From positions 42,263 through 106,262 of IMG/VR virus record IMGVR_UViG_3300046804_004738: a stretch of 64,000 nt of DNA; one strand, given 5' to 3'. The position numbers and the translations under genes are program-made. The first letter of the stretch is position 1, and each line of letters opens with the position of its first letter. This DNA comes from a virus. The notes below the pieces were generated by a model, which saw only the letters and a list, made by a program, of their open reading frames with translations, was not told the origin of the DNA and searched no databases. This document shows, piece after piece, positions 27,068 to 42,554 of the stretch.

Positions 27068-27068
27068 C

Positions 27069-27146: not shown

Positions 27147-27152
27147 ATTGTT

Positions 27153-27226: not shown

Positions 27227-27235
27227 ATTTATACA

Positions 27236-27439: not shown

Positions 27440-27453
27440 AACATTTCCTTTAT

Positions 27454-27528
27454 TGGTAGGAGATAACGGGGTCGAACCATTGACCTTCGCCTTGTAAGGG
27501 CGCTGCTCTACCACTGAGCTAATCTCCC
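27454..27528 (-). tRNA. tRNA-Val(UAC)
   Basis: CT TAC AA loop, CCA. Confidence 0.92.
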
Positions 27529-27537
27529 ACATACTTT

Positions 27538-27620
27538 TGGTGCGCATAGAGGGACTTGAACCCCCACCTCGTAAGACCAGAACCTAAATCTGGCGCGTCT
27601 GCCAATTTCGCCATATGCGC
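27538..27620 (-). tRNA. tRNA-Leu(UAG)
   Basis: CCAGA-TT TAG GT-TCTGG, long variable arm. Confidence 0.92.
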
Positions 27621-27628
27621 ATTATACT

Positions 27629-27714
27629 TGGTACCCGGAGCCGGACTCGAACCGGCACGCCCTATCGAGCATTGGATTTTAAGTCCAAGGTGTCTACCAT
27701 TCCACCACCCGGGC
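27629..27714 (-). tRNA. tRNA-Leu(UAA)
   Basis: TTGGA-CT TAA AA-TCCAA, long variable arm. Confidence 0.92.
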
Positions 27715-27723
27715 ATTAAAACT

Positions 27724-27797
27724 TGGAGCGGGGTAAGAGAATCGAACTCTCAGCTTTAGCTTGGAAGGCTAAGGTATTGCCATTATACGAACCCCGC
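27724..27797 (-). tRNA. tRNA-Gly(UCC)
   Basis: TTAGC-CT TCC AA-GCTAA. Confidence 0.92.
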
Positions 27798-27800
27798 ATT

Positions 27801-27877
27801 TGGTGCCTCCGACAGGACTCGAACCTGTAACCAACGGATTATGAGTCCGCTGCTCTGACCAATTGAGCTACAGAGGC
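27801..27877 (-). tRNA. tRNA-CAU (probably Ile2/lysidine, otherwise elongator Met)
   Basis: GCGGA-CT CAT AA-TCCGT. One of three CAU tRNAs. Confidence 0.85.
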
Positions 27878-27886
27878 AATTTAACT

Positions 27887-27940
27887 TTTTAAAGAACAAT
27901 TCAATCTTTGTACTATACTGCCTAATGCTTTTACTGTCAA
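27887..27940 (-). promoter_or_regulatory. sigma70 promoter with boxA-like site
   Basis: TTGACA-17-TATAGT (27940-27912), then TGTTCTTTAAAA (27898-27887). Confidence 0.7.
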
Positions 27941-27943
27941 CTG

Positions 27944-28168
27944 TTAAACAAAGTCATCTGACCCAAAATACTCTGTTACTTTTTGCCTTGCCTCTTTTCT
28001 ATTAAGTGCAGGAATCTTTACAGTAGCAATATTATTTTTTATTTTAATGTTAAAAGGCACTATGCCATTTGGCAACCAATTATCTTCAACACGAACCTTA
28101 ACAGTAAACTCCTTAAGGCGCATTAGTCTTTCAATTACTTGTTGCGTAAGATCGGATGGGTTTGACAT
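27944..28168 (-). CDS. Hypothetical protein
   Basis: Start re-called to ATG 28168, outside the tRNA. Confidence 0.65.
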   Translation of the reverse strand: MSNPSDLTQQVIERLMRLKEFTVKVRVEDNWLPNGIVPFNIKIKNNIATVKIPALNRKEARQKVTEYFGSDDFV

Positions 28169-28180
28169 AATTAAATTAAT

Positions 28181-28255
28181 TGGTGCTGGCAGTAGGAATC
28201 GAACCCACAACCTACGGATTACAAATCCGTTGCTCTACCGTTGAGCCATGCCAGC
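28181..28255 (-). tRNA. tRNA-Thr(UGU)
   Basis: ACGGA-TT TGT AA-TCCGT. Confidence 0.92.
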
Positions 28256-28265
28256 GTATTCTGTA

Positions 28266-28427
28266 TTACTTATTCCTACTTGCTATTGCTCGTTCAATTT
28301 TACCTTTGTGCTTTGGTCTACAAGTTTCTAGCATTTTGGTAAGTTGTTCTACATTAAGAGGTCCTAATCTAATCTTACCTGTTTTTGTTTTCATTGGATC
28401 ACGTTTTGAATCTTTTTTTACACTCAT
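28266..28427 (-). CDS. 53-aa basic hypothetical protein (not in ORF track)
   Basis: MSVKKDSKRDPMKTKTGKIRLGPLN..., SD GAGGA. Confidence 0.6.
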   Translation of the reverse strand: MSVKKDSKRDPMKTKTGKIRLGPLNVEQLTKMLETCRPKHKGKIERAIASRNK

Positions 28428-28446
28428 ACAATCCTCATTATAAATT

Positions 28447-28522
28447 TGGCTGTCTAGGTAGGGATCGAACCTACGACAGGGTGATTAACAGTCACCTGCT
28501 CTACCGACTGAGCTACTAGACA
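28447..28522 (-). tRNA. tRNA-Asn(GUU)
   Basis: GGTGA-CT GTT AA-TCACC. Confidence 0.92.
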
Positions 28523-28530
28523 ATAAAACT

Positions 28531-28622
28531 TGGCGGAGCGTATTAGATTCGAACTAATGGTACACATTTCTGTATACGACGGTTTAGCAAACCGCTGCCT
28601 TCGACCTCTCGGCCAACGCTCC
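28531..28622 (-). tRNA. tRNA-Ser(GCU)
   Basis: TT GCT AA loop, long variable arm, G73. Confidence 0.92.
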
Positions 28623-28632
28623 TTATAAATAT

Positions 28633-28830
28633 TTACTTACTTACAATGTCCTCAACTTTTTTATCAAACTCTAACCGACTAAGCAATAGATTATATACTA
28701 AATAAAACATACCTGCAACTAACATTCCACCTAAAACATAAACTGGTAGCAAGTTGGCTAATGATGCAGATAGAATACACACAATAAAAAATCCAATTGT
28801 TTGTAACAATGCTTTTAATTTTATATTCAT
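28633..28830 (-). CDS. Small two-TM membrane protein
   Basis: Start re-called to ATG 28830, downstream of a promoter. Confidence 0.65.
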   Translation of the reverse strand: MNIKLKALLQTIGFFIVCILSASLANLLPVYVLGGMLVAGMFYLVYNLLLSRLEFDKKVEDIVSK

Positions 28831-28852
28831 GATATACCTTTCACAAAATATA

Positions 28853-28881
28853 ATTATACTACTAATAGGATTTATTGTCAA
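28853..28881 (-). promoter_or_regulatory. sigma70-type promoter
   Basis: TTGACA-ATAAATCCTATTAGTAG-TATAAT. Confidence 0.88.
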
Positions 28882-28896
28882 GTCTTAAAATGTTGT

Positions 28897-30042
28897 CTAA
28901 ATTTTAACTTTATCCAAAAATCCGTACATACTTTGTAATACGGTGTCCCAATCTCCTATTACTGGTTGACGAAATATTCTAGCACTATTATACCAAGGAT
29001 GCAAGCTAGTATCTAACAAATATCTCCAATCAACAGCAAAGTTATTCAGTGGAATCCATAATGGTTTTCCCATTGCACCTGCTAAATGTGCGATTGCAGT
29101 ATCTACACTTATTATTAAGTCTAAATGATACAGTAATCCTGCTGTATCTCCCCAATGTTTTATACTATTAGGAAACACTCGCAGGGGAGAATTAAGTATA
29201 TAAGGTGTTTCTTCTTCAGTTGCATCTGCTACTAAATTAATCCATTCAATATCAGGCCTAGCAAACACTAGAGATAGCATTTTAGATACATGCATTCCTT
29301 TGTGTTGATTAATCCAACTATCTTTTCTTCCACTCCAACATACACCAACACGCATTTTAGTTTTAGGACCTAATTTTTCACGCCACGGTTCAATATACTT
29401 TGGTATCGCTTCAATATATGGTCTGCTGTCTAAATTATCAAGTGTAATGTTTAATACCCTTGCGAGAGACATTGTAGTGATGTAATAATCAAAATCAGTT
29501 AAATCCTCACGATTGTGAGAGATTTGATATACATATGGATTGTTTTCAAACAGTTCAGGCATACCCATGTGTGTATGAAATAAAACTTTACCACCTAATT
29601 CATGTATGTTTTTAAAAAAACGAACAAATTGAATTGTATCCCCTAACCCTTGTTCCCATAGAACTAATAACTTTTTATTACGTAAGTCTTGTCCTTCCCA
29701 CATAGGTTTGCCTAACTGTGGCAGTGTGCCTGCAAGATGTTCGTATTGCCAACGCCATTCATATTGTTTGAAGCCTCTTTCAAAATCTCCAGCTAACAAA
29801 TATGCTACACTTAAATTAAATTGGGCGGTTACATAATTTTCATCTAATGCGACCGCGTGTTGTAAGAAAGGTATCGCACGTTTAGGTTCACCCATTTCAC
29901 GTAGTACGTTACCATAATTGTTCCATGCATGAATATTTGTTGGGTCTTTCGTAAAAGCCTGTGCATAACATTCTAAAGCCTTATCAGGCTCTGTGCTATT
30001 TCTGTAGTTGTTTCCTATATGTACTAATTCGTCTGATGTCAT
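28897..30042 (-). CDS. TPR-repeat protein with GT9-like glycosyltransferase domain
   Basis: N-terminal TPRs, EQGLGDTIQF and DLIISVDTAIAHLAGAMG motifs. Confidence 0.85.
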   Translation of the reverse strand: MTSDELVHIGNNYRNSTEPDKALECYAQAFTKDPTNIHAWNNYGNVLREMGEPKRAIPFLQHAVALDENYVTAQFNLSVAYLLAGDFERGFKQYEWRWQYEHLAGTLPQLGKPMWEGQDLRNKKLLVLWEQGLGDTIQFVRFFKNIHELGGKVLFHTHMGMPELFENNPYVYQISHNREDLTDFDYYITTMSLARVLNITLDNLDSRPYIEAIPKYIEPWREKLGPKTKMRVGVCWSGRKDSWINQHKGMHVSKMLSLVFARPDIEWINLVADATEEETPYILNSPLRVFPNSIKHWGDTAGLLYHLDLIISVDTAIAHLAGAMGKPLWIPLNNFAVDWRYLLDTSLHPWYNSARIFRQPVIGDWDTVLQSMYGFLDKVKI

Positions 30043-30050
30043 ATTTAATT

Positions 30051-30141
30051 TGGCGGAAGCGGACGGAGTCGAACCCTCAAGGCGCTATTAACGCTCAACT
30101 GTTTTCAAGACAGGTACCATCGCCATTTGGTTTGCGCTTCC
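30051..30141 (-). tRNA. tRNA-Ser(UGA)
   Basis: CT TGA AA loop, long variable arm, G73. Confidence 0.9.
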
Positions 30142-30367
30142 TTTTTATAATCATTGCTACATAAGTACCTGCAAATGCACCAAGCAATGCAGGAATTAAA
30201 AGGTATAAATCTTTTACAAAACTAACTAAAGCAAAACTATAAATTAACATTACAATCGCTGCAAGTGTACTGGCAATTAAAGGTTTATCTTCAGCAATAG
30301 CTTTGATATAATAGGTATTTACTATGTCAGTAAAGAACACCGCAAAAAATGTTAGTATATAGTTCAT
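30095..30367 (-). CDS. Small membrane protein
   Basis: Three hydrophobic helices. The 3' end runs into tRNA-Ser. Confidence 0.65.
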   Translation of the reverse strand: MNYILTFFAVFFTDIVNTYYIKAIAEDKPLIASTLAAIVMLIYSFALVSFVKDLYLLIPALLGAFAGTYVAMIIKRKRKPNGDGTCLENS

Positions 30368-30368
30368 A

Positions 30369-30443
30369 TGGTTAGTCCTGCAGGAATCGAACCTGCATCA
30401 TTGCAATCGGAATGCAGTATCTTATCCATTAGACGAAGGACTA
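30369..30443 (-). tRNA. tRNA-Arg(CCG)
   Basis: TGCA-TT CCG AT-TGCA, T-arm GCAGG-TTCGATT-CCTGC, CCA. Confidence 0.82.
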
Positions 30444-30658
30444 ATTTCTACTCTTTGTTGGTAGTATGGGTATGCTAGCACAAAATAGACATAATCTTTT
30501 TCGTCGTGAAAAAGTATATATCTTGAATTTTCGGACGTTTCAAATTTACAGTTAGGATGTTGTTCATGCCATTCAAATAATCTTTTTCTATGAAAGCGAA
30601 CTTTGGCTGTCATAGCAAAATACGGATATGATGTTTCACAAATTTCAACTGTAATCAT
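30422..30658 (-). CDS. Hypothetical protein
   Basis: 78-aa ORF. Stop lies inside tRNA-Arg(CCG). Confidence 0.5.
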   Translation of the reverse strand: MITVEICETSYPYFAMTAKVRFHRKRLFEWHEQHPNCKFETSENSRYILFHDEKDYVYFVLAYPYYQQRVEISPSSNG

Positions 30659-30662
30659 AAAT

Positions 30663-30738
30663 TGGAGCGGGTGATCAGGTTCGAACTGACGACATTTACC
30701 TTGGCAAGGTAACGCTCTACCAACTGAGCTACACCCGC
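30663..30738 (-). tRNA. tRNA-Gly(GCC)
   Basis: TTACC-TT GCC AA-GGTAA. Confidence 0.93.
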
Positions 30739-30746
30739 TTGAAACC

Positions 30747-32657
30747 TTAATTAGTTTCTTTTACTTCTGCATCTACTACTGTAGGATCACCGGGCTTTAC
30801 TTCAGCATTTGGATCACCATTTGGCATTTCTTTATTGCGTTTTTCTGCTTCATACTTAATAGTTTCACGATATAGTTCACCTAACTCCTCAGTGGCTTTA
30901 TCCATATCTTCTTTACTATCGCCTTTAGCAGTTTCTTTGTGTTTAGTTATTGCATCAACTAGTTTAGTTTTTTCATCTTCAGGAATATATCCTTCAAGAT
31001 TTGTAATTTGATTTTCTAAATTAGAAATGCTACCATCTAAACTATTTCTTGCCTGTACAAGTTCAACTATTTTTTTATCTTCTTCTGCATTGGCTTCTGC
31101 GTCTTTAACCATACGGTCAATTTCATCTTCGCTTAATCCAGAATTAGCCTTAATTGTAATTTGTTTTTCTTTATTGGTTTTCTTATCAACTGCCTTTACA
31201 GAAAGAATACCATTTGCATCAATATCAAACGTAACTTCAATTTGTGGCATTCCTCTTGGTGCTGGATCAATGCCTTCTAAATTAAACTCGCCTAATGCCT
31301 TGTTACCAACTACAACTTCACGCTCACCTTGGAAAACTTTAATAGTTACTGCAGGCTGATTATCATCTGCTGTACTGAAAGTTTGGCTTGCCTTAGTAGG
31401 AATCGTAGTATTCTTTTTAATCAGCTTACTCATTACTCCGCCTAATGTTTCAATACCAAGGCTCAATGGTGTAACATCAAGTAACAATACATCTTTACGA
31501 TCACCACCTAATACCTGACCTTGAATTGCGGCACCAACTGCAACTGCTTCATCAGGGTTTACATCTTTACGTGGTGCTTTGCCGAAAAACTTTTCAACAG
31601 CTTCTTGCACACGTGGCATACGTGTCATACCACCAACAAGAATAACTTCATCAATGTCATTTATATTGACACCTGCATCACGCATTGCAATTTCACATGG
31701 CTTAATACTACGTTGAATCAAATCTTCAACAAGCCCTTCAAATTTAGCACGTGTGATTTTAACATTCAAGTGTTTTGGTCCACTTGCATCCGCAGTAATG
31801 TATGGCAGACTTACATCTGTCTGTGTAGAACTTGACAATTCAATCTTTGCACGTTCTGCCGCATCTTTAAGTCTTTGTAATGCTAATACATCTTTGGTTA
31901 AATTAACTCCCGTTTCTTTTTTAAATTCTTCAACAAGGTAATCCATTATACGTTGATCGAAATCTTCACCACCTAAGAATGTATCGCCGTTGGTTGATAA
32001 AACTTCAAATTGTTTGTCACCTTCGACTTCTGCAAGATCAATAATAGACACATCAAAAGTACCACCCCCTAAGTCATAGACAGCAACCTTACGGTCCTTC
32101 TTGTCCTGTTTATCCACGCCGTATGCTAACGCGGCAGCTGTGGGTTCGTTAATAATACGCAATACTTCCAGACCGGCAATTTTGCCCGCGTCTTTAGTTG
32201 CTTGTCTTTGACTGTCATTAAAATACGCTGGTACTGTGATGACTGCTTGTGTAACTTCTTCACCTAAGAAATCTTCAGCGGTCTTTTTCATTTTACGAAG
32301 GACTTCAGCACTGATTTGTGGAGGTGCCAATTTCTTATCGTTTACCTCTACCCATGCATCACCATTGTCAGCTTTGATGATTTTGTATGGTATTAAATCT
32401 ATATCTTTTTGAACTGCTTCCTCAGTGAACTTACGACCAATAAGGCGCTTAGCAGCGTAAATTGTGTTTTTTGGATTAGTAATAGCCTGACGTTTAGCTG
32501 GAGCACCTACCATTATTTCACCATCATTTATGTATGCGATGATACTTGGGGTAGTTCTTGCACCCTCACTATTTTCTATTACTTTTGGATTTTTGCCATC
32601 TATGATAGCAACGCATGAATTTGTGGTACCCAAATCAATACCGATAATCTTTGACAT
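30747..32657 (-). CDS. dnaK: Chaperone DnaK (Hsp70)
   Basis: [44 protein letters not shown]. Confidence 0.98.
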
Positions 32658-32664
32658 AATTTTT

Positions 32665-32727
32665 TCTCCTTTAATAAGCAAGATTACTATCAGTGCCCAT
32701 TAGGCGCATCTGATATATATATTTATA
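32665..32727 (-). promoter_or_regulatory. T4-type late promoter and ROSE-like RNA thermometer upstream of dnaK
   Basis: TATAAATA (32727-32720), a hairpin, then TCTTGCT-TATTAA-AGGAGA pairing over the SD. Confidence 0.6.
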
Positions 32728-32761
32728 CATGTATTTCCGAAAAAAAACAACATAACTGGAT

Positions 32762-33448
32762 CTAATCCAAATACCCAAAACCCCAAATGCGTTCTTTGCA
32801 CCACCAACAACTACCACAATGACGATCATTTACAATAGTGCTTTCGCAGGATCTTGTGATTTTGTATAAATCTTCTATACCCAATTCTCTATATAGCAAA
32901 GCAATTTTTTGTTTGTTTATATTAATAAACGGAACATAATAAGATTGTGTAAACTGCGGGTAAGAAAACTCAGTGTCTTGAAAAAAATGCCAAGGTGCTT
33001 TGGACAAATCATCATAATATGTATCTAACACAAGTTTGTGATCTACACCACCTTGTGCGGCAACATTAGTTGTATCAAAATCAGTTATTGCATCGACTGG
33101 GGGAGGCCTTGTAAATCCAAAATACACAGTGTCAACTTTAACTGTTTGCATGTATTCAGCTAACATAACATTATCAGTTGTTTTATGTTTTGTCCAATGT
33201 GTGTAGAATCGTAGATTGTTAGGGTCAAATCCTGTCATGCCCATAACTTTATTAATTACTTTTAATGCATTAATAGGTTCACGATAATTACTTTTGCCAT
33301 TGGCAGCTGAAAAAATATGCAAAGGTTGATTAATATTAGACATCAACATGTACAACATTAAAGCACTATCGGCTCCGCCTGATACAAAAGCTCCTAAGTT
33401 GCCATCGTAAATATCAAATGTAAAATCGTTATATTGTATGTATTTCAT
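32762..33448 (-). CDS. QueC-like PP-loop ATPase
   Basis: SGGADS PP-loop and TRSC...HCGSCWWCKER zinc motif. Confidence 0.75.
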   Translation of the reverse strand: MKYIQYNDFTFDIYDGNLGAFVSGGADSALMLYMLMSNINQPLHIFSAANGKSNYREPINALKVINKVMGMTGFDPNNLRFYTHWTKHKTTDNVMLAEYMQTVKVDTVYFGFTRPPPVDAITDFDTTNVAAQGGVDHKLVLDTYYDDLSKAPWHFFQDTEFSYPQFTQSYYVPFININKQKIALLYRELGIEDLYKITRSCESTIVNDRHCGSCWWCKERIWGFGYLD

Positions 33449-33486
33449 AAAATTATTTAAATAGTAGTGTAACATTTAAGATATTT

Positions 33487-33561
33487 TGGTAGCAGGAGAG
33501 GGATTCGAACCCCCGATAGCTTCCGTATGAAGGAAGTGCATTACCACTTTGCTATCCTGCC
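33487..33561 (-). tRNA. tRNA-CAU (probably elongator Met)
   Basis: CTTCC-TT CAT AC-GGAAG, CCA. Confidence 0.85.
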
Positions 33562-33563
33562 AT

Positions 33564-33851
33564 TTAATCTTCGTCTTTATAAAATTTATCCTGTTTTAAT
33601 TTTTTTTCTTGGATCGTATCTTCTCCAAAAAATTTGCGGGGATTACCGCACATGTAACACTTTGGATCACCGCAATTAAAAATATTCATTTTTAAATTTC
33701 TATGCGGTTGTTTCATATTACGCCAGTTGTGCATTGCACTACTTAATTTGTGATATCCATAATTTTTCGCTAGTTGTAGTTGCTTTTTAATTCTATTTTC
33801 TTTTTGGTGTAGTCTTTCACTGTGCTTTTTCTTTACAACTTCATCTGACAT
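33564..33851 (-). CDS. Basic hypothetical protein with Cys motif
   Basis: CGDPKCYMCGNPR. SD GAGGAG. Confidence 0.75.
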   Translation of the reverse strand: MSDEVVKKKHSERLHQKENRIKKQLQLAKNYGYHKLSSAMHNWRNMKQPHRNLKMNIFNCGDPKCYMCGNPRKFFGEDTIQEKKLKQDKFYKDED

Positions 33852-33866
33852 AATTACTCCTCTTAT

Positions 33867-33944
33867 TGGTGGAGAGTCTAGGAATCGAACCTAGTTCAAC
33901 GGCTCTTCAAACCGTCGCTGAATGACCACACTAGCTCACTCTCC
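33867..33944 (-). tRNA. tRNA-Phe(GAA)
   Basis: ACGGT-TT GAA GA-GCCGT, CCA. Confidence 0.85.
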
Positions 33945-33964
33945 TATATATTTAAGTTTTTTTA

Positions 33965-34576
33965 TTAAGGTTTTTTATAAATTACAATTTTATGATTTGG
34001 CAATGGATAATCATATTCCACTAAGTTTTGAAATTTACTGTTTAAATACTTAAAAATGTCAAAATGATCATCAAACCATATTACACTTTTATCTTCACGC
34101 CAATCACCTGGCACCAATCTTTGTTTAAAATTATTAAGACAAACCAAATATCCGTTCAATTTTAAACTATTGTAAATATTTTCAATTTCTTCAATAGGAT
34201 TTTCAACATGTTGTAAAACAAATGATGCTATACATACATCAAAAACTTTAGTGTATGTTACTTTATTACATGTAACAAAATTTTTAGGATTATTTACGTA
34301 CTGAGTGGCATAGACTAGCATGTTAAGACTAATATCAGTACCGACAATTTTACAATTGAAATCATCAATAAGTTCTTTACTTACTCTTCCCATACCAACA
34401 CCAAAATCTAAAACAATGCTACTTTCATTTATTAGATTTTCTTTTTTTATAACGTCAACAAAATATTTTGTTGCTTCCGTAAACCTATTAGGATCATTAT
34501 CATCTGGTGTTAAAACAATATCTTTTGCATGTTCTAAACTTATAGGATCAAAAATTGCAGATTGATAACCTTTCAT
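33965..34576 (-). CDS. Class I SAM-dependent methyltransferase
   Basis: VLDFGVGMGR motif I, GTDIS, FVLQHV. Confidence 0.85.
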   Translation of the reverse strand: MKGYQSAIFDPISLEHAKDIVLTPDDNDPNRFTEATKYFVDVIKKENLINESSIVLDFGVGMGRVSKELIDDFNCKIVGTDISLNMLVYATQYVNNPKNFVTCNKVTYTKVFDVCIASFVLQHVENPIEEIENIYNSLKLNGYLVCLNNFKQRLVPGDWREDKSVIWFDDHFDIFKYLNSKFQNLVEYDYPLPNHKIVIYKKP

Positions 34577-34591
34577 ACTTTATTTATCCTT

Positions 34592-34668
34592 TGGGGTGAA
34601 GGATGGGACTCGAACCCACGACCAACGGAATCACAATCCGCGACTCTACCAACTGAGCTACCATCACC
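34592..34668 (-). tRNA. tRNA-His(GUG)
   Basis: TT GTG AT loop, G-1:C73. Confidence 0.92.
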
Positions 34669-34673
34669 ATAGA

Positions 34674-34853
34674 CTATTCTGCACGCCATTCAACACGACC
34701 ATGTTGGTCAATATGTGCTATACTCTGCATACGTTTAATCTCAACATAATCTCGTTTTTCAGTAATGATTGTTCCGCCTCGTTTTACAAGCTCATCAATC
34801 TTAATTAGTGCAACACTGCTAATTGGCATAAATTTTTTAAATGTGTACTCCAT
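34674..34853 (-). CDS. Hypothetical protein
   Basis: Start re-called to ATG 34853 after SD AAGGAG. Confidence 0.7.
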   Translation of the reverse strand: MEYTFKKFMPISSVALIKIDELVKRGGTIITEKRDYVEIKRMQSIAHIDQHGRVEWRAE

Positions 34854-34871
34854 TTTATATCTCCTTGTAAC

Positions 34872-34948
34872 TGGTACCCCAGGAAGGATTCGAACCTCCG
34901 ACTCCTGCGTTCGTAGCACAGTACTCTAGTCCACTGAGTTACTGGGGC
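34872..34948 (-). tRNA. tRNA-Arg(ACG)
   Basis: CTGTG-CT ACG AA-CGCAG. Confidence 0.92.
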
Positions 34949-36048
34949 ATAAATTTTATTTCTTTTGTATTAGCATTAGTTAGTCGCTGACCTTGCCACC
35001 ACCCTTTTTTCCATCCATCACGTAAAATTGCTTGAAGTAAAAAAGTACCAAATGTATGAGGTATGAATTGAGCATAAGGTCCCATATACATGTAACTCGT
35101 ATCTAATGACTTTGCAGTTGCCCAGTGTATTATCTGTATGATAATATTATTGTCTAGTACAACACCGATATGGTATGGATTACTTCCTATGTTTGAATGT
35201 TTTCCAAACGACAGTCCTAATTCATTTGCAACTTCTGTTAACCAATCATATATTTCACTAGCAAAAATTTCTTTATCTTGTTCAAACGGAATACCAATTT
35301 GCGAGGGTGATCTTACACAAAAATTATATGGCAATCTTCCCTGAGACTTTAACCAAATCATCTTTTCAACAGCATATCTTACTTGCTGTTTTGATTCTAC
35401 TGTAAAGCTTAATTGTGCAATCATTATACTTGATTCTGCAATATTTTGCAAGGCTTGGTCAACTTTTTTCCATACTGCTGCATTATGATACTCTGGATTG
35501 TGTATACTCATGCTTATCAAATTTAAACCAGAATCAACTAGTGATTGTAAATATTCTTTATCTCTAATTTTTAGACCATTAGTATACATCATGACTTTTG
35601 TTTTCGGAACAGCAGCTGGTCTATTACAAATTTCTTTAATAATATATGGTAAATCTTTTCGCATCGTAGGCTCTGCTCCCATAAAGCATACTGTTGATGT
35701 AGGTACAGCTAATGCTCTTGCGATGATTAACTCTGCTGGCAAATCCTCAATTTCGTTATCAGGCGAGTGATAACAATGTTTGCATTGTACATTACACCTA
35801 TCAGTAACTTCAATAATAGTAATATCATTGTAGGCGTTCCAAGTGTCATTAGTTGGATCAGTTTGTAACGCAGTATCCCAAAACTTATAATCTCTTTCTA
35901 CCATTGCCTCTTCATATCCATGAGTAGGACAAGTTTTAACAATATAGGCAGAGCCATCATCTCGGTATTCAATTGTTGCAGGCAATTCCATGTAGCACGT
36001 ACCGCATAATCCACGTGTTGTATAACTGTTTATCATTGATTTCTCCAT
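34939..36048 (-). CDS. Radical SAM enzyme with N-terminal CxxC...CxxHG cluster motif
   Basis: CNVQCKHC, GAEPT, YTNG. Confidence 0.88.
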   Translation of the reverse strand: MEKSMINSYTTRGLCGTCYMELPATIEYRDDGSAYIVKTCPTHGYEEAMVERDYKFWDTALQTDPTNDTWNAYNDITIIEVTDRCNVQCKHCYHSPDNEIEDLPAELIIARALAVPTSTVCFMGAEPTMRKDLPYIIKEICNRPAAVPKTKVMMYTNGLKIRDKEYLQSLVDSGLNLISMSIHNPEYHNAAVWKKVDQALQNIAESSIMIAQLSFTVESKQQVRYAVEKMIWLKSQGRLPYNFCVRSPSQIGIPFEQDKEIFASEIYDWLTEVANELGLSFGKHSNIGSNPYHIGVVLDNNIIIQIIHWATAKSLDTSYMYMGPYAQFIPHTFGTFLLQAILRDGWKKGWWQGQRLTNANTKEIKFMPQ

Positions 36049-36090
36049 TGAAGTAATATTTATATTATAAATATAACCTTACTTAACAAT

Positions 36091-36168
36091 TGGCTGGGGA
36101 CCTAGGATTCGAACCTAGGAATGCCGGAATCAAAATCCGGTGCCTTAGACCAACTTGGCGAGTCCCCA
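36091..36168 (-). tRNA. tRNA-Gln(UUG)
   Basis: CCGGA-TT TTG AT-TCCGG, U1-A72. Confidence 0.92.
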
Positions 36169-36169
36169 A

Positions 36170-36319
36170 TTAACTTGCTATAATCTTCGGAAGATATGGC
36201 ACATTCCTAGGACCATGTCTTTGTTCAAAAAGCATACGTGCTTCTTGTAAATCTTTTGCATACACCCTATCTTTTATTTCACCTTGAGGTGTTCTTACTG
36301 TAGTTTCAAACATTGGCAT
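36170..36319 (-). CDS. Small hypothetical protein
   Basis: MPMFETTVRTPQGE..., SD GGAG. Confidence 0.6.
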   Translation of the reverse strand: MPMFETTVRTPQGEIKDRVYAKDLQEARMLFEQRHGPRNVPYLPKIIAS

Positions 36320-36339
36320 AACAAACTCTCCAGAGGTAA

Positions 36340-36361
36340 GAAAAGGTAGCAACGCTACCCT
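36340..36361 (-). terminator. Terminator-like hairpin after pqqA
   Basis: GGTAGC-GTT-GCTACC-TTTTCT. Confidence 0.55.
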
Positions 36362-36392
36362 TTCACGCTACATGTAAATTGTAAATCAGCTA

Positions 36393-36464
36393 TTAGCGAT
36401 TTGCAATGTACATGGTGATTTCAAATCCAAAACGCATATCAGTTGCACTTGGTGTTGTCCACAT
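36393..36464 (-). CDS. pqqA: Pyrroloquinoline quinone precursor peptide PqqA (not in ORF track)
   Basis: MWTTPSATDMRFGFEITMYIANR, 23 aa with the PqqA W..P...R.GFE...Y (ExxxY) signature. SD AGAGGAG. Confidence 0.93.
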   Translation of the reverse strand: MWTTPSATDMRFGFEITMYIANR

Positions 36465-36592
36465 GTTACTCTCCTCTATTTAAAATATACATGTACTGCA
36501 CATGTATTTAAGAGAGTATACAACACAAAAATGGTACTGAATATACGCAATGTAATGAACGATAGCTAGTTAAAATCATTAAAATTACCATA

Positions 36593-36667
36593 TAGAAACA
36601 CATTCCTGGACTCTCGTAACAGCAGTCCATAGCCCCGGGCGCCATTATGTGTTTGAATGTGTTTTTA
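36593..36667 (-). ncRNA. Long-stem small RNA candidate
   Basis: AAACACATTC...GAATGTGTTT closing stem around two internal hairpins, directly 3' of tRNA-Lys. Confidence 0.45.
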
Positions 36668-36669
36668 TA

Positions 36670-36745
36670 TGGTAGGGGCACCAGGGATCGAACCTGGGAC
36701 ACATAGATTAAAAGTCTACTGCTCTGCCAACTGAGCTATACCCCC
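36670..36745 (-). tRNA. tRNA-Lys(UUU)
   Basis: GTAGA-CT TTT AA-TCTAT. Confidence 0.92.
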
Positions 36746-36772
36746 ATCATCTTTCGAGGTTTGTCACTTTCC

Positions 36773-36940
36773 TTATTCATCTTTTTCACCTTTATTTTTC
36801 ATACTTCTTGCCTTAGCATTTCTTTCTGAGGATCTAACAGCCTCACGAATAAAATGTCTACCGCGTTCTTTGTCGAAACAAAGGATAGCGATTGCCTTTT
36901 CTGCTTTTTTAATCTTTACTGCTCTTGCATCGTAACCCAT
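36773..36940 (-). CDS. Small basic hypothetical protein
   Basis: MGYDARAVK..., SD GGGAG. Confidence 0.65.
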   Translation of the reverse strand: MGYDARAVKIKKAEKAIAILCFDKERGRHFIREAVRSSERNAKARSMKNKGEKDE

Positions 36941-37028
36941 ATTATACTCCCTATTTAAAATTTCTGTCAATTAAAACTAGTAACCAAATAACTCCTATAC
37001 ACACTGCCATTGCCCCATTGTAGTTCTC

Positions 37029-37217
37029 CTATTTGTTGATTGAGGTTGAGAATTTCTCTGACTCAATTTCTAGTTGATCTGTTTTATCATTCATATTCTT
37101 AATGTCACTGACAATAGACGCTACAGTAGCCTTTTCATTTCTTAATTTGGCAAATTCAGCTTCATATTTTGCAAGAAGGTCTGAATTAACATGTTTACGA
37201 ATCCAATCAGTAGTCAT
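37029..37217 (-). CDS. Hypothetical protein
   Basis: TATAAATA 4 nt upstream of the ATG. Confidence 0.6.
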   Translation of the reverse strand: MTTDWIRKHVNSDLLAKYEAEFAKLRNEKATVASIVSDIKNMNDKTDQLEIESEKFSTSINK

Positions 37218-37232
37218 TCAATATTTATAATT

Positions 37233-37317
37233 TGGTGGGGATGGAAGGATTCGCACCTACTCACCCGAAGGAACGGATTTACAGTCCGCCGCCGCTCTCT
37301 AACTCAGCCGCATCCCC
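37233..37317 (-). tRNA. tRNA-Tyr(GUA)
   Basis: GCGGA-CT GTA AA-TCCGT, long variable arm, atypical T-loop TGCGAAT. Confidence 0.88.
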
Positions 37318-37320
37318 ATT

Positions 37321-37524
37321 AGGTGCTTCCTCTCTGCGGCGGTAATTATACTGCATCAAGCACCAAGTAGTCCTAGCACCATCACACACAGCCTCCACCC
37401 GCTCCCCGACCAGAGAGGATTCTCGTATAGCCAACGCACTTTCGGTTAAAAGTGTACCACCCGTAGCTATCACACTACTTCTCATCGTGCGGGTCACACT
37501 ATCTGTTGATTAGACAGAACGTTC
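37321..37524 (-). ncRNA. Candidate ~200-nt structured RNA between tRNA-Asp and tRNA-Tyr
   Basis: GC-rich. Stems CCTCTCTG/CAGAGAGG, ACCCG/CGGGT, GTAG/CTAC, CACTTT/AAAGTG and TCTGT/ACAGA. Confidence 0.6.
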
Positions 37525-37601
37525 TGGCGACACCAAGGGGGTTCGAACCCCTGACCTCCGCCGTGACAGGGCGGCGTTCTGACCAGCTGAACTATGGTGC
37601 C
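37525..37601 (-). tRNA. tRNA-Asp(GUC)
   Basis: CCGCC-CT GTC AC-GGCGG. Confidence 0.93.
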
Positions 37602-37767
37602 AATGTTCTACACTCTGCTACTAACTTACTTTTTACAATTGTTAATCTTTTATTCCAAACATACTCACTATCTCTACATTCTTTTTCTGTAGCATATTTT
37701 GAGTATTGAGTATAGTTGTCAGGAAACTGTAGCCAAAATACTAATATCCATGTCATACAATTTCCCC

Positions 37768-37892
37768 TATATTAGTTTTGTAGCCTGCACTATATGCCTA
37801 ACTCAACAGCTTTACACGTGATTACTGTTTATTGTTTCGGTTACATAACGCCTGCGCCTGCCTCTGTGCTTACAGGCTACAAAACTAATATA
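37768..37892 (-). ncRNA. Long-stem RNA candidate (20-bp perfect terminal inverted repeat)
   Basis: TATATTAGTTTTGTAGCCTG...CAGGCTACAAAACTAATATA. Confidence 0.55.
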
Positions 37893-37900
37893 AAACATAT

Positions 37901-37989
37901 TGAAACACACTAGGGGATTCGAACCGCCTCACTGTCGGCATCGGACAGCATTACCACCCGTCGTGCGCCCTTCGGCTTAGTGTGCTTCA
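37901..37989 (-). ncRNA. tRNA-like RNA without CCA end
   Basis: TGAAGCACACTA/TAGTGTGTTTCA closing stem, D-loop-like TGGTAATGC and T-loop GGTTCGAATCC. Confidence 0.55.
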
Positions 37990-37992
37990 TTA

Positions 37993-38069
37993 TGGTGCCT
38001 GTTCCTGGACTTGAACCAGGGACTCCCACCTTATCAAGATGGTACTCTGACCAACTGAGTTAAACAGGC
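37993..38069 (-). tRNA. tRNA-Ile(GAU)
   Basis: CCATC-TT GAT AA-GGTGG. Confidence 0.92.
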
Positions 38070-38073
38070 AATT

Positions 38074-38149
38074 TGGCACACCCAACCGGATTCGAACCGG
38101 TGTTGCTACCGTGAAAGGGTAAAGTCCTAGGCCTCTAGACGATGGGTGC
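38074..38149 (-). tRNA. tRNA-Glu(UUC)
   Basis: TTACC-CT TTC AC-GGTAG. Confidence 0.92.
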
Positions 38150-38162
38150 ATAAAACTTAAAT

Positions 38163-38217
38163 TGTTAAAGAATCAAAAATAATCAGACATTGTATCTCGT
38201 TTTGGATTTAATGTCAA
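38163..38217 (-). promoter_or_regulatory. sigma70 promoter with boxA-like site
   Basis: TTGACA-17-TACAAT (38217-38189), then GATTCTTTAACA (38174-38163). Confidence 0.7.
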
Positions 38218-38221
38218 CTAT

Positions 38222-38578
38222 TTAAAGTGTTACCCAGAAGAAACCGTTCCAGCATTCTACTTTATCGGTATCTTCATTGTATCTGATCTCATTGATGTTA
38301 AGTGTTTGTGGGATAGAATCTTTTTCTTTTAGGTAACGCATATGTGCAGTTTTTGAATTATGTATTTCATACATTTTCTTATTTACTTTTACAGTATAAA
38401 GATTTTTGCCCATAAGTGTACAACCTCGGCCCCAGATGCATAGACCGCTACCATATTCGTCCACAACTACTTTCATAACTCTCCCGCGTTCGTGACCTGA
38501 TCTGGGAAATTTTTGATGATAAACAAAATGATATCCCTGTTTCATTAAATTATCAATTTGTGCAAGTGTCATCTTCAT
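38222..38578 (-). CDS. Hypothetical protein
   Basis: Start re-called downstream of the promoter TTGACA-17-TATACT (38637-38609). Confidence 0.6.
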   Translation of the reverse strand: MKMTLAQIDNLMKQGYHFVYHQKFPRSGHERGRVMKVVVDEYGSGLCIWGRGCTLMGKNLYTVKVNKKMYEIHNSKTAHMRYLKEKDSIPQTLNINEIRYNEDTDKVECWNGFFWVTL

Positions 38579-38642
38579 GACTAATGACCTATCAATAAAG
38601 AAATATGAAGTATAGCACCGAAATGATTTAATGTCAAATGTT

Positions 38643-38718
38643 TGGTGGAGGTGACAGGGATCGAACCCGCGACCTACGGCTTGCAAAGCCGCCGCTCTCC
38701 CAACTGAGCTACACCCCC
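38643..38718 (-). tRNA. tRNA-Ala(UGC)
   Basis: TT TGC AA loop, G3:U70. Confidence 0.93.
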
Positions 38719-38722
38719 AAAC

Positions 38723-38797
38723 TGGTCCGGCTGCCAGGAATCGAACCTGGATCAGAGGCTTAGAAGGCCACTGTACTATCCATTGTACTACAGCCAG
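38723..38797 (-). tRNA. tRNA-Arg(UCU)
   Basis: CT TCT AA loop, CCA. Confidence 0.9.
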
Positions 38798-38800
38798 ATA

Positions 38801-38835
38801 ATGCAGAGTATATCAATACTCTGCATTTTTGTCAA
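38801..38835 (-). promoter_or_regulatory. sigma70 promoter overlapped by an 11-bp inverted repeat
   Basis: TTGACA-17-TATACT with ATGCAGAGTAT/ATACTCTGCAT. Confidence 0.75.
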
Positions 38836-38836
38836 C

Positions 38837-39397
38837 CTAAGACTGTAGAATCCTACTATGCTTCGGCACCCCACTTATCAAGTATTCCATTTGGTCAGCT
38901 AGAATGTTTCTATTTTGCAAAATCATACTTTCAAAGTGATTTGGTTCATAAGGCACATAAAGTAATTCCATTCTTGCTTCCTTTAGTGTCTTATTATCTT
39001 TTTTGTTATTGCAACTAGTACATGCAGTAACAACATTCATCCAAATGTTTACGCCACCTCTGCTTTTAGGCAGAATGTGATCACGGCTCAAATGACTACT
39101 ATTACTGAAATGTCCACCACAATATGCGCAAACATGACGATCACGACCAAACAATGTTTTGTTTGTTAATGCAACTTTGCCGTGTCTGCTAGGATCAAAA
39201 CCATGTCCCTTGATAGCAATAATACTAGGCGTTTCAATGTAACTCATGCGTCCATCATTTTGGACACCACCACGAAACTTAGCTACTACTTCACCTAGCG
39301 ACCATGCAACCATATCTTTCGCATGATATGTAATTGCATTTTCGTGCGAGATCCACTGTCTAGGGATTCCGCCGATATCTAACGCTAGAACCGACAT
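38837..39397 (-). CDS. HNH endonuclease
   Basis: RDRHVCAYCG...DHILPKSRGG...NVVTACTSCNNKK. Confidence 0.92.
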   Translation of the reverse strand: MSVLALDIGGIPRQWISHENAITYHAKDMVAWSLGEVVAKFRGGVQNDGRMSYIETPSIIAIKGHGFDPSRHGKVALTNKTLFGRDRHVCAYCGGHFSNSSHLSRDHILPKSRGGVNIWMNVVTACTSCNNKKDNKTLKEARMELLYVPYEPNHFESMILQNRNILADQMEYLISGVPKHSRILQS

Positions 39398-39448
39398 GAT
39401 ACTCTCCTTATAAGTTTAATGTATTTAGACACTCTAAAATTTAAAGTG

Positions 39449-39622
39449 TATGATAAAGCAAACTAGTACCGCCTTATCGGTGCGATTCATATTATTAAGC
39501 TAATTTGCTTTATCATTCCCGTTTTACTATGCTGTTACCGCCAGCGTTTTCATCAGGGGCTCCGCCCGTTTACGGCATGTTTTAAGTGCGCCGTTGAGAC
39601 CTCGTTTCTCTCACACCTAAAC
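39449..39622 (-). ncRNA. Candidate structured RNA(s)
   Basis: Multi-hairpin GC-rich segment plus a 17-bp closing stem (39449-39517), downstream of TTGACA-18-TAGAAT. Confidence 0.5.
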
Positions 39623-39625
39623 GTG

Positions 39626-39775
39626 TTAAGATTCTAACACGTTATCATCTTTATTGTCAACCTTTTCAGTAAAACCATAGAATTCTCTAATTCTTTCAAA
39701 CTTTTCAGTTATCAATTTATTAAGTTGTTCATCTGATAATATATGGTTGTCAATAGTATCTTTTTGATAATTCAC
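39626..39775 (-). CDS. 49-aa hypothetical protein (not in ORF track)
   Basis: GTG start with GGAG upstream. First ORF after the attenuator. Confidence 0.45.
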   Translation of the reverse strand: MNYQKDTIDNHILSDEQLNKLITEKFERIREFYGFTEKVDNKDDNVLES

Positions 39776-39796
39776 CTTTCGTTCTCCATATAAAGT

Positions 39797-39830
39797 AAAA
39801 AACCCTGGGACTTTTTGAGTACCAGGGTTT
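39797..39830 (-). terminator. Attenuator terminator
   Basis: AAACCCTGG-TACTCAAAAAGTC-CCAGGG-TTTTTT. Confidence 0.85.
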
Positions 39831-39850
39831 AGATAATCTTACTATGAAAC

Positions 39851-39976
39851 TTACTTACCTAAACCCCCACAGCCCTCAATAATATTACGGTCACTTGTTA
39901 AGGCATAAAACCCTACAGGTAGCCATGCCAATATCATTGACTGTTTTCTGGTTATATGCGTACAAAAGTTTTTCAT
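39851..39976 (-). CDS. Putative attenuator leader peptide containing all 20 amino acids (not in ORF track)
   Basis: MKNFCTHITRKQSMILAWLPVGFYALTSDRNIIEGCGGLGK*. The 3' end GGGTTTAGGTAA pairs with TTATCTAAACCC, which overlaps the terminator 5' arm. Confidence 0.8.
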   Translation of the reverse strand: MKNFCTHITRKQSMILAWLPVGFYALTSDRNIIEGCGGLGK

Positions 39977-40005
39977 AGTAATTCTATTTAGTCCTGTAAT
40001 TTAAA

Positions 40006-40034
40006 AGTATACTTTTTATAGTAAAAAATGTCAA
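40006..40034 (-). promoter_or_regulatory. sigma70 promoter for the leader (plus TAAATA at 39990-39985)
   Basis: TTGACA-17-TATACT. Confidence 0.85.
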
Positions 40035-40036
40035 TA

Positions 40037-40537
40037 TTATATTTGCCCACTAATTTGTTTCAATTCTTTTAACATTTTTGTAACCGAACCTACTATATTT
40101 AAATCATCCTCTGAAATAAACTGTATTATATCTTTATCATCAACAATACACAATACTCTTGTTAACCTATCCTCAGTAAAAGCTAGGTCTAGTTTGTTTG
40201 CTAAACTTACATGAGGCTGTGGATTATCAGTAAAAATATACAAGCTTGGGGTACCTGCTTTCTGACTTATAATACTCCAAGCTGCATCAGCAAAACCTCT
40301 ATCTGTAGAGCCAATAAATAGAATAATTCCGTTCTTTGCTAATAATTGAGATATATTGTGGAAACCTATTAATTCTTCAGGATGTACATATGTAAAATTA
40401 TTTGGATAAAAAACAAAAATTTTCCATACGCCCTCAAAGGTTTTTTCATTCACTAGTTTTCTAGCATTAGAATTGGACTCATTTGGTTTAGTGCAATTGA
40501 TTGCATATGGTCCTACGACATCACCTGTATTTTTCAT
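40037..40537 (-). CDS. AhpC/peroxiredoxin-like protein lacking the peroxidatic Cys
   Basis: WKIFVFYPNNFTYVHPEEL versus canonical FYPxDFTFVCPTE. Confidence 0.7.
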   Translation of the reverse strand: MKNTGDVVGPYAINCTKPNESNSNARKLVNEKTFEGVWKIFVFYPNNFTYVHPEELIGFHNISQLLAKNGIILFIGSTDRGFADAAWSIISQKAGTPSLYIFTDNPQPHVSLANKLDLAFTEDRLTRVLCIVDDKDIIQFISEDDLNIVGSVTKMLKELKQISGQI

Positions 40538-40545
40538 AAAAGTAT

Positions 40546-40728
40546 TTATTCAGATATTTTTCCCCAGTTCAGTTTTAACCACGCACGTTCATGTATGTAA
40601 TGAGCGATTGTCATGAAGATATTAATTACAATTGCTCCGCTCAGTCCTGTCCAAATTGCTGTAACTAATGTTGCTACTATTCTCCATGTTATTGCTCTTA
40701 TAATTGTTCTTTTGTGCGTTTCGGTCAT
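40546..40728 (-). CDS. DUF2061-like small membrane protein
   Basis: ETHKRTIIRAITWR...YIHERAW. Confidence 0.75.
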   Translation of the reverse strand: MTETHKRTIIRAITWRIVATLVTAIWTGLSGAIVINIFMTIAHYIHERAWLKLNWGKISE

Positions 40729-41120
40729 TTTGTTAATATTCCTAATTGTCTATATCCACGATATGTTGGATGTACCTTATCCGGTGATAGTTCTGGTATA
40801 ATAATAAATGTATCGCCATAATGCCTAGCAATTTTTTTTACTATTTCTTGTTTTTCTGGTTTAATGGCAGGAACTATCCAAAATATTTGATCTGAATTTA
40901 CGAAACTTCTTAGGGCAACAAGTTCTATTTCAGTGTTTAGATTTTTAAAATCATTACTACCTAAACTAATAATTGTAGTTTTAGCAGGTTTAATTTTCTT
41001 AACGTAGGAATCATTCCAATCACGACTATTAATACCGCTTTGAGCATAAGCTACACATTCTGTACGAATTTGGCTTATTCCTTTTGCTATACTATCACCA
41101 AGAATAAGGCACTCTATCAT
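40725..41120 (-). CDS. SGNH/GDSL hydrolase-like protein
   Basis: GDS, SLGSND and DKVHP blocks. Confidence 0.8.
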   Translation of the reverse strand: MIECLILGDSIAKGISQIRTECVAYAQSGINSRDWNDSYVKKIKPAKTTIISLGSNDFKNLNTEIELVALRSFVNSDQIFWIVPAIKPEKQEIVKKIARHYGDTFIIIPELSPDKVHPTYRGYRQLGILTK

Positions 41121-41548
41121 TGTTCGGACAAATATTTGTCTAGGGCTTTTTGATAACGATTCGCATGTGATCTTTCTGCTTTTGCTAAAGTTTCAAACCA
41201 ATCAGCAATTTCATCAAACCCTTCATCACGTGCAGTTTTTGCCATACCTGGATACATGTCAGAATACTCATGTGTCTCACCTGCAATTGCTGCTTCTAAC
41301 ATTTGTCGTGCAGACTTTGCTGGCATATCGGTACCAGGTTCACCTGCCCCACCTTCAATTAAATATTCCATATGACCATGTGCGTGACCAGTCTCACCTT
41401 CAGCAGTAGAGCGGAATAGTGCAGCAAGATCATTTTCACCCGCAATGTCGCATTGATTTGCAAAATATAGATAACGTCGGTTTGCCATTGATTCTCCTGC
41501 AAATGCTTCTTTTAAACATAATGCTGTTTTAGATCCTTTGATATTCAT
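41117..41548 (-). CDS. Rubrerythrin family protein
   Basis: AFAGESMANRRY...ETGHAHGH...ETHEYSDMYPGMA..AERSH. Confidence 0.92.
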   Translation of the reverse strand: MNIKGSKTALCLKEAFAGESMANRRYLYFANQCDIAGENDLAALFRSTAEGETGHAHGHMEYLIEGGAGEPGTDMPAKSARQMLEAAIAGETHEYSDMYPGMAKTARDEGFDEIADWFETLAKAERSHANRYQKALDKYLSEQ

Positions 41549-41642
41549 ACATTCTCCTTTGATAAAAATACTGTATATTATAATCTAGGTATTTATATTT
41601 TTGAAATTGTTTGGGAAAAATAGTATACATGTAAATAGTATT

Positions 41643-42554
41643 ATGAACACTTTTGTATTAAATCCAAACGTTTACGATGTGGTATTTCTTAGTTATGACG
41701 AACCAAACGCAGACGAAAACTATGGACATCTGTTATCAATTAAACCAAAAGCCAAAAGAATACATGGGGTAAAGGGTAGTGATGCTGCGCATAAAGCGGT
41801 TGCAGAAATAACAAAAACTGATAGAGTCATTATAATTGACGGTGATAACAAAATTAATCCAAACTTTTTTGGTAATAATGTTTACACAAAACCACACTTT
41901 GACTGGACTGATTATGTTTTTAGCTGGAGCAGCTACAACCCAACAAATGGAAATTGTTACGGTAATGGCGGTATTAAATGTTGGCCAGTTCACCTACTTA
42001 AAGAAATGCGTACTCATGAGGTAGGTGATAGTGTTGACTTCCAATTAGATAAATATCTTGAATTAAATAAAATAGGAAGTGACACAATAATAAATGCTAG
42101 TCCATTACAAGCTTTTCGTGCAGGATTTCGTGATGGCATGAAACTATTAGAGAGTGGTGACAAAGATTTTGAAAAGTTAGATTGGCGAAACCGCGAAAGA
42201 CTTTATAATTGGATGCACATAGGTAGTGATGTAAAATTTGGGTTATGGGCAATATATGGTGCAAGATTGGGTGCATTCATGTTATTACGCGGGCATGACA
42301 TAAAAATATTAAATGACTTTGACAAAATAAATGAAGTGTTTGAAACATATAGTGGTATTGCAAATGTAAATTTAATGGAAGAATGCAATAAGATAGGTAG
42401 AACTTTTATTAGCAAGTATGTACATGATGTACTATTCCCTGATCAAAGTATAGAAGTAAAGGCAAATTATGAGCCTCCAATTCGTAGTGCAGAAGAATTC
42501 TTAGCAGGTAAAACAAAGGAAGATATTGACAAATTTTATGCAAGTCCCGTTTGA
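41643..42554 (+). CDS. Glycosyltransferase-like protein
   Basis: FLSYDEPNA, IIDGD and AFRAGFRDG motifs. Start ATG 41643. Confidence 0.65.
   Translation: MNTFVLNPNVYDVVFLSYDEPNADENYGHLLSIKPKAKRIHGVKGSDAAHKAVAEITKTDRVIIIDGDNKINPNFFGNNVYTKPHFDWTDYVFSWSSYNPTNGNCYGNGGIKCWPVHLLKEMRTHEVGDSVDFQLDKYLELNKIGSDTIINASPLQAFRAGFRDGMKLLESGDKDFEKLDWRNRERLYNWMHIGSDVKFGLWAIYGARLGAFMLLRGHDIKILNDFDKINEVFETYSGIANVNLMEECNKIGRTFISKYVHDVLFPDQSIEVKANYEPPIRSAEEFLAGKTKEDIDKFYASPV

Follow-up and report, generated by a model that had tools for sequence, protein, structure and literature searches.

What does a 41-codon open reading frame do when it is enclosed between a consensus promoter and an intrinsic terminator and followed, on the same strand, by a complete set of tRNA genes? 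The question is raised by a window of 64,000 nucleotides, the whole stretch of DNA analysed here (positions 42,263 to 106,262 of the IMG/VR record IMGVR_UViG_3300046804_004738), for which a first-pass annotation had suggested a transcription attenuator responding to a shortage of almost any charged tRNA. The window lies within a 106-kb contig, judged ~30% complete, of an uncultured giant lake phage. The contig contains tail-fibre, ribonucleotide reductase, radical-SAM, and QueC-like genes and a single copy of the leader. Our search of the GenBank phages gave no match to the contig, the leader element, or its peptide. Coordinates below are window positions, and all window features described are on the minus strand.

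The leader frame and its start

The leader ORF (39976-39851) comprises 41 codons and a TAA stop codon (39853-39851). As the annotation had described, 32 distinct sense codons are used, and the set of 20 amino acids is complete by codon 34. Runs of codons for a single amino acid, the clustered regulatory codons of classical attenuators, were not found in the leader; leaders of the family described below contain, on average, 1.0-1.1 copies each of Cys, Trp, and His, and Ala averages 3.2 of ~48 residues. By window-only statistics, the all-20 feature is not significant: the probability that 41 residues include all 20 amino acids is 0.6% in 41-aa windows of the phage's long ORFs, 0.9% in draws from its protein composition, and 0.8% in draws from its nucleotide composition, and about one complete peptide is expected among the 125 window ORFs of 35-45 aa, of which the leader is the sole complete one. 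The feature exceeds chance only once relatives are included. A cognate codon is found in the leader for 25 of the 27 phage tRNAs under strict wobble, and the 26 counted previously are reached only if tRNA-Pro(UGG) reads CCU; synonymous recoding gives 22.8 ± 1.3 (P = 0.08). The varied synonymous codons that had been pointed out are indeed present, but the codon choice of this single leader is not significant.

A sigma-70-type promoter with 11 of 12 consensus matches precedes the leader, as had been annotated, with the -35 element TTGACA at 40034-40029, a 17-nt spacer, and the -10 element TATACT at 40011-40006. It is kept in the close relatives, where the -10 element reads TATAAT, and promoters stand at the same place in three divergent relatives (L024, L073, and L086). 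It is followed by a 5' motif (39995-39974) made up of AGGA, CTAAATA (39991-39985), 8 nt, and the ATG (39976). This 21-22-nt motif occurs exactly in 16 viral and 29 metagenome stretches, and in the family as a whole it lies 5-9 nt from the ATG.

In sequence, the 5' motif resembles both the other gene starts of this phage and the T4-type late promoter. NTAAATA is located 4-5 nt 5' of the ATG in 10 other window ORFs (e.g., 40549, 41631, 52945, 33460, and 38386), and a Shine-Dalgarno 4-mer is absent from 38 of the 52 window ORFs of at least 120 aa. Since most of the phage genes thus lack a Shine-Dalgarno sequence and ten other ORFs carry NTAAATA, the leader start looks, from its sequence, like an ordinary gene start of this phage. 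The phage seems to use a T4-late-promoter-like motif right at its gene starts, and the mRNAs beginning there are perhaps leaderless or near-leaderless. The 5' motif was not found as a repeated element of the window. In other contigs, the same 24-nt motif heads a long ordinary ORF with no tRNAs nearby (L026/L040:85-106, L037, and L051); the motif appears to be a portable gene-start module.

Relatives of the leader and selection for completeness

Close relatives were found via homologues of the upstream 166-aa gene, at nine loci, eight of which extend past that gene. In these eight, the DNA from promoter to terminator is 81-83% identical, compared with 63-74% for the flanking protein. Distant relatives were found by scanning viral and metagenome contigs for the 5' motif and the terminator pattern; their leaders contain 40-59 codons and share 14-33% identity with the window's peptide. 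In addition, a profile search of 5.8 billion proteins led to 140 peptide clusters.

A non-coding structured small RNA, in which the ORF is incidental, would accord with a 45-nt core that is nucleotide-invariant among the close relatives and with the leader's AGGA, which sits 15 nt from the AUG, a poor Shine-Dalgarno spacing. However, the frame of 40-59 codons is open in every DNA-defined member and ends at the same structural place, and upstream of the G-run a single indel was seen, of 3 nt. The mid and long subfamilies show an excess of synonymous changes, which make up about half of their single-base codon differences, and third positions are the most variable. Completeness and codon-box usage, presented below, are likewise traits of a translated frame, and no Rfam family matches the element. 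A purely non-coding role is thus highly improbable.

The relatives also bear on a second explanation, namely that the locus is a conventional small gene, complete with promoter and terminator, encoding a functional micro-protein whose completeness is a by-product. The gene-start context shared with other phage genes accords with it, as do a Trp residue that is invariant, Ser and Arg residues that are nearly so, and a YPTSIRG-like motif that both the mid and the long subfamilies keep through synonymous codon changes, which hints, at the level of the alignment, that the peptide sequence itself matters. On the other side, the 109 synonymous and 303 non-synonymous substitutions among the window's close relatives look neutral, a pattern that fits a leader of little sequence importance and could equally fit RNA-level constraint. 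The close relatives carry indels in the G-run and read the C-terminal box (39866-39855) in differing frames; the box is therefore conserved as RNA rather than as peptide. The leader homologues have no Pfam annotation attached and belong to no PHROG family, and a micro-protein would leave the overlap of antiterminator and terminator described below without a role.

Completeness itself is maintained by the family in the face of this divergence. Among 131 distinct full-length homologues, 20 amino acids are present in 120, 19 in nine, and 18 in two; most of the apparently Cys-less matches proved to be N-terminally truncated gene calls. When the set was thinned to below 50% identity, 13 of 17 peptides were complete, against 2.7 expected from column permutation (maximum 7 in 2000 runs) and 0.5 from draws of the family composition. 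In a tree simulation with site-specific residue frequencies, a complete root, and divergence matched to that observed, 12-14 of 65 tips were complete (maximum 29), against 56 observed. Close relatives are non-independent in all of these completeness tests, and thinning and the tree simulation handle this only partly. The most telling evidence is that residues move. Of 58 peptides with the usual Cys, three have a Cys at another site, compared with 13 of the 16 without the usual one (P = 3e-9). The same relocation on loss of the usual copy is seen for His, Trp, Tyr, Asp, Gln, and Val. Codon variety exceeds expectation in the 27 leaders with DNA available for codon tests. The family uses 937 distinct codons, summed over leaders, against 838 ± 10 under synonymous recoding (reached in 0 of 1000), and of the three amino acids Ser, Arg, and Leu, an average of 2.85 are encoded from both codon boxes, against 2.13 expected (0 of 1000).

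The completeness of the leader for the 20 amino acids is under selection. This evolutionary signature is unusual, with selection acting on the presence of a residue type rather than on its position, and it can be searched for elsewhere. We know of no protein function that requires one copy of each amino acid, yet lost single-copy residues reappear at other positions and completeness far exceeds the tree-based expectation; the micro-protein explanation is for this reason disfavoured, and we regard it as quite unlikely.

Another ORF, of 32 codons, Thr/Asn-rich and with 15-16 residue types, precedes a terminator of the same sequence type at 11 loci on further viral contigs (L065, L066, L072, L080, L085, L090, L091, L093, L094, L100, and L104), and may represent a second, narrower leader family.

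Competing RNA pairings and ribosome position

An intrinsic terminator (39830-39797) with a 9-bp lower stem and a 3-bp upper stem follows the leader; its 5' arm lies at 39830-39822, its 3' arm at 39808-39800, and its run of six T at 39802-39797. The terminator is kept in all 25 DNA-level members, between the leader ORF and the downstream genes. In alignment A3, 90.6% of its cells are paired, compared with 17-66% when the partner strand is slid, and its covariation score was reached by none of 500 shuffles.

The 12-bp helix that the annotation had proposed between the end of the leader and the terminator was confirmed, with one G-U pair. The 5' arm of this antiterminator (39877-39854, core 39866-39855) comprises the last 8 sense codons, and the core pairs with 39836-39825, which overlaps the 5' arm of the terminator within a shared segment (39836-39822). 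The antiterminator duplex formed with 39841-39822 has a predicted energy of -18.6 kcal/mol, compared with -15.7 kcal/mol for the terminator. An antiterminator arm overlapping the ORF end is kept together with the terminator in 25 of 25 members, with duplexes of -12 to -26 kcal/mol (z of -1.7 to -7.8 against shuffles) that occupy 7-15 nt of the terminator 5' arm and usually equal or exceed the terminator in stability; in the short forms, the arm lies at -25 to +8 relative to the stop codon. In register, 84.7% of the antiterminator cells pair, compared with 22-55% when slid. True covariation is small, with three pairs changed on both sides, and the support comes mainly from conserved complementarity. 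When whole elements were aligned with MAFFT, RNAalifold returned two features, the terminator and, of the antiterminator helix, the non-competing half alone; in the modelled fold, this half would serve as a toehold beside the shared segment.

A third pairing, not seen in the annotation, is the closing helix P1. Its 5' strand (39988-39961) includes the AUG and codons 2-5, its 3' strand spans 39862-39832, and a box at 39849-39839 pairs with the AUG region. This helix is absent from the RNAalifold result through misalignment and was taken from single-sequence folds; in these predictions, which are biased towards pairing, the AUG is paired long-range in 22-24 of the 25 members. At the variable codon-2 positions, P1 shows four pair types, and compensating multi-base changes occur in L071 and L024/L036, including an extra ATG matched by an extra CAT. 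The ribosome-free RNA is predicted to fold into a closed rod plus the terminator (z = -3.6). Such a stable rod burying the AUG would also suit the non-coding RNA considered above. We found no match on the element with cmscan against Rfam, at E ≤ 1 on 25000-42000 and at E ≤ 5 on L073. The T-box and the known Rfam amino-acid leader families were rejected as candidates, no covariance model having matched.

How would these pairings respond to a translating ribosome? When stalls were scanned in a full-length equilibrium model, the response was patchy, with the terminator winning in most cases, and uniform sensing was not seen. Attenuation is a kinetic process; hence, a truncated-transcript proxy was used, in which the transcript is cut just 5' of the terminator 3' arm and no pairs form across a 30-nt ribosome footprint. 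The proxy rests on assumed kinetics and an assumed footprint and ignores pairs that enclose the ribosome. With these settings, the terminator 5' arm stays sequestered in all 25 members for every A-site position between codon 2 and a point ~9-13 codons short of the stop, and it is released once the ribosome is in the final codons or at the stop. Every residue type falls within the modelled sensitive range in 16 of the 25 leaders, a weak result given per-leader P values of 0.2-0.7. In the window, the sole Glu codon (34) lies one codon outside the modelled range, in line with the earlier caveat that stalls beyond about codon 33 would probably still mask the antiterminator.

Taking these pairings together with the selected completeness, we favour, with a probability of roughly 60%, a ribosome-mediated attenuator that heads the tRNA region and reports overall decoding capacity rather than the supply of a single amino acid. 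In this proposal, host RNA polymerase would start at the consensus promoter and a ribosome would translate the 41-codon leader. A ribosome keeping pace, located in the last ~8 codons or at the stop, would cover the arm at 39866-39855, whereupon 39836-39822 would remain free to pair with 39808-39800 and transcription would presumably end at ~39797, in the T-run. A ribosome lagging or stalled at any earlier codon, through an uncharged, cleaved, or scarce tRNA or through general translation stress, would let the arm pair with 39836-39825 while the terminator 3' arm is still to be transcribed, and read-through would then extend transcription into a 49-aa ORF, a structured RNA, and the tRNA genes. 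With no ribosome, the helix between the AUG region and the post-stop segment would close the RNA, and the terminator form would win.

The architecture is that of the trpL, hisL, leuL, thrL, pheL, and ilv leaders, in which a translated leader behind a promoter is followed by an intrinsic terminator, the antiterminator shares the terminator 5' arm, and the final part of the leader ORF supplies the antiterminator's own 5' arm. A pairing further upstream tips the ribosome-free RNA towards the terminator, much as the 1:2 hairpin does in trp. In contrast to this class, the phage leader has no codon runs and instead keeps the full set of 20 amino acids, the rare ones at about one copy apiece, tRNAs and a structured RNA rather than biosynthetic enzymes lie downstream, the element is phage-borne, and a closing helix buries the start codon. 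The element is thus probably ribosome-mediated attenuation extended from one amino acid to all twenty. T-boxes similarly link tRNA charging to a terminator/antiterminator choice before translation-related genes; however, a T-box binds one specific uncharged tRNA directly and needs no translation, whereas the phage element has a conserved ORF.

The nearest system in logic is the whiB7/wblC uORF of Actinobacteria, an antitermination switch that responds to many translation stresses (PMC10274678). The uORF of M. smegmatis whiB7 encodes 19 of the 20 amino acids. When its Trp or His codons are removed, the response to the corresponding starvation is weaker or lost, experimental evidence that the shortages sensed by an attenuator are set by the composition of its uORF (PMC10274678). 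The same sensing by codon presence is proposed for the phage leader. The whiB7 uORFs are alanine-enriched and vary in coverage, that of M. tuberculosis lacking several amino acids (PMC10274678). An alanine-enriched uORF of this type before a WhiB-like gene was not encountered here, Ala occurring in the phage leaders at the frequency given above and the genes downstream of the switch being those described in the next section. The whiB7 system further differs in that its output is a transcription factor rather than tRNA genes, it is cellular rather than viral, and maintained completeness has not been reported for it.

The downstream region and the tRNA array

The tRNA array (38835-26136) contains 27 tRNAs for all 20 amino acids (ARAGORN and Rfam) and begins with tRNA-Arg(UCU) at 38797-38723. 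It is separated from the switch by ~1 kb, in which four kinds of features are located. The first gene 3' of the terminator is a 49-aa ORF (39775-39626) with a GGAG ribosome-binding site; it is kept in close relatives and matched no PHROG family. Next is a conserved structured RNA of ~115 nt (39620-39505), between the terminator and the tRNAs and 3' of the 49-aa ORF. An HNH endonuclease gene (39397-38837; phrog_16726, E = 3e-23) lies between the switch and the first tRNA. Finally, there are two consensus promoters, namely a conserved one at 39660-39631 (TTGACA, 18-nt spacer, TAGAAT) and the first tRNA's own promoter at 38835-38807. All of the internal promoters that had been listed are present, the others (38637, 38217, 28881, and 27940) being further promoters inside the array. 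The GGAG of the 49-aa ORF is among the few good ribosome-binding sites in the window, and in L024 its slot is occupied by an unrelated 53-aa ORF.

The annotation had placed the leader at the head of a complete array. The 27 tRNAs do cover all 20 amino acids, but gating of the whole array is doubtful in the window because the 49-aa ORF, two promoters, the structured RNA, and the HNH gene intervene. Here the switch cannot gate the whole array alone and would be one of several inputs to tRNA expression, to which its contribution may be small. The HNH gene is probably a mobile insertion that moved the switch away from the array, since L073 and L086 have only ~170-200 nt at this place, too short for such a gene.

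Across the family, the linkage is regular. A co-oriented tRNA array follows 0.17-1.3 kb past the terminator in every locus with enough downstream DNA, representing at least 14 lineages (the window, L009, L011/L045, L015, L018/L052, L021, L024/L036, L038, L046, L049, L053, L055, L070, L071, L073, L086, L088, L092, and L102). The expectation that short ORFs before the tRNA arrays of related phages would keep full coverage in spite of sequence divergence was thereby borne out, as were the other computable predictions of the pan-tRNA-sensing interpretation, which gains its support from comparison.

The intervening features raise the question of whether tRNA supply is the output at all. With the same mechanics, the switch might instead serve the 49-aa ORF and/or the structured RNA, or might yield a terminated leader RNA that acts in trans, the tRNAs being mainly self-promoted. 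The promoters at 39660 and 38835 point in this direction, and so does the structured RNA, which directly adjoins the leader terminator in L070, L073, L086, and L089 (L070:5663-5795, L073:2818-2952, L086:2956-3086, and L089:12532-12660) and also occurs in L053 (1557-1682). RNAalifold gave 12 consensus pairs for this RNA, seven of them with compensatory changes, and AACG, GCAC, GGGCGG, and GTAA form invariant blocks; no match was found in Rfam. The terminated leader is itself predicted to be a stable rod with a buried AUG, and attenuator-derived sRNAs are known, rnTrpL being one example (PMC6614838). Against such an output, the co-oriented tRNA array is linked to the switch in every lineage examined, even in L024, where the upstream gene is unrelated. 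The interval from terminator to first tRNA is 170-200 nt in L073 and L086, and no consensus promoter was found in it. A leader with 20 amino acids and both codon boxes, moreover, best matches a tRNA-related output. We consider an output confined to these other products unlikely.

We return to the attenuator heading the tRNA region. A homeostatic loop, with chances slightly better than even, would follow from it: any decoding delay would lead to read-through into the phage tRNA genes, and the new tRNAs would restore termination. The leader of such a loop would be complete for the 20 amino acids and, for Ser, Arg, and Leu, would include both codon boxes; the delay might come from starvation or a mismatch in codon usage, or from loss of tRNAs to host anticodon nucleases or to decay during infection. 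In our full-text literature search, control of this kind was not found described for tRNA genes of either phages or cells. If the loop is true, control of tRNA genes by a ribosome-mediated attenuator would be known here for the first time, as would an attenuator of this class that senses the whole genetic code. A built-in decoding sensor would make phage tRNA expression conditional on the depletion or cleavage of host tRNAs, which would tie the phage tRNAs to anti-defence and bear on why and when large phages use tRNA arrays. The element would also provide a compact natural reporter of translation stress.

The array holds two further features. QueC-like and radical-SAM genes (32762-33475 and 34939-36048) are interspersed among the tRNAs of the window, which suggests that the phage also encodes tRNA-modification functions of the queuosine pathway inside the array. 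In L070, ARAGORN reports a tRNA with a four-base anticodon (acca) on the minus strand at 269-343, beside tRNA-Trp; it could be a frameshift-suppressor-like tRNA or a misprediction.
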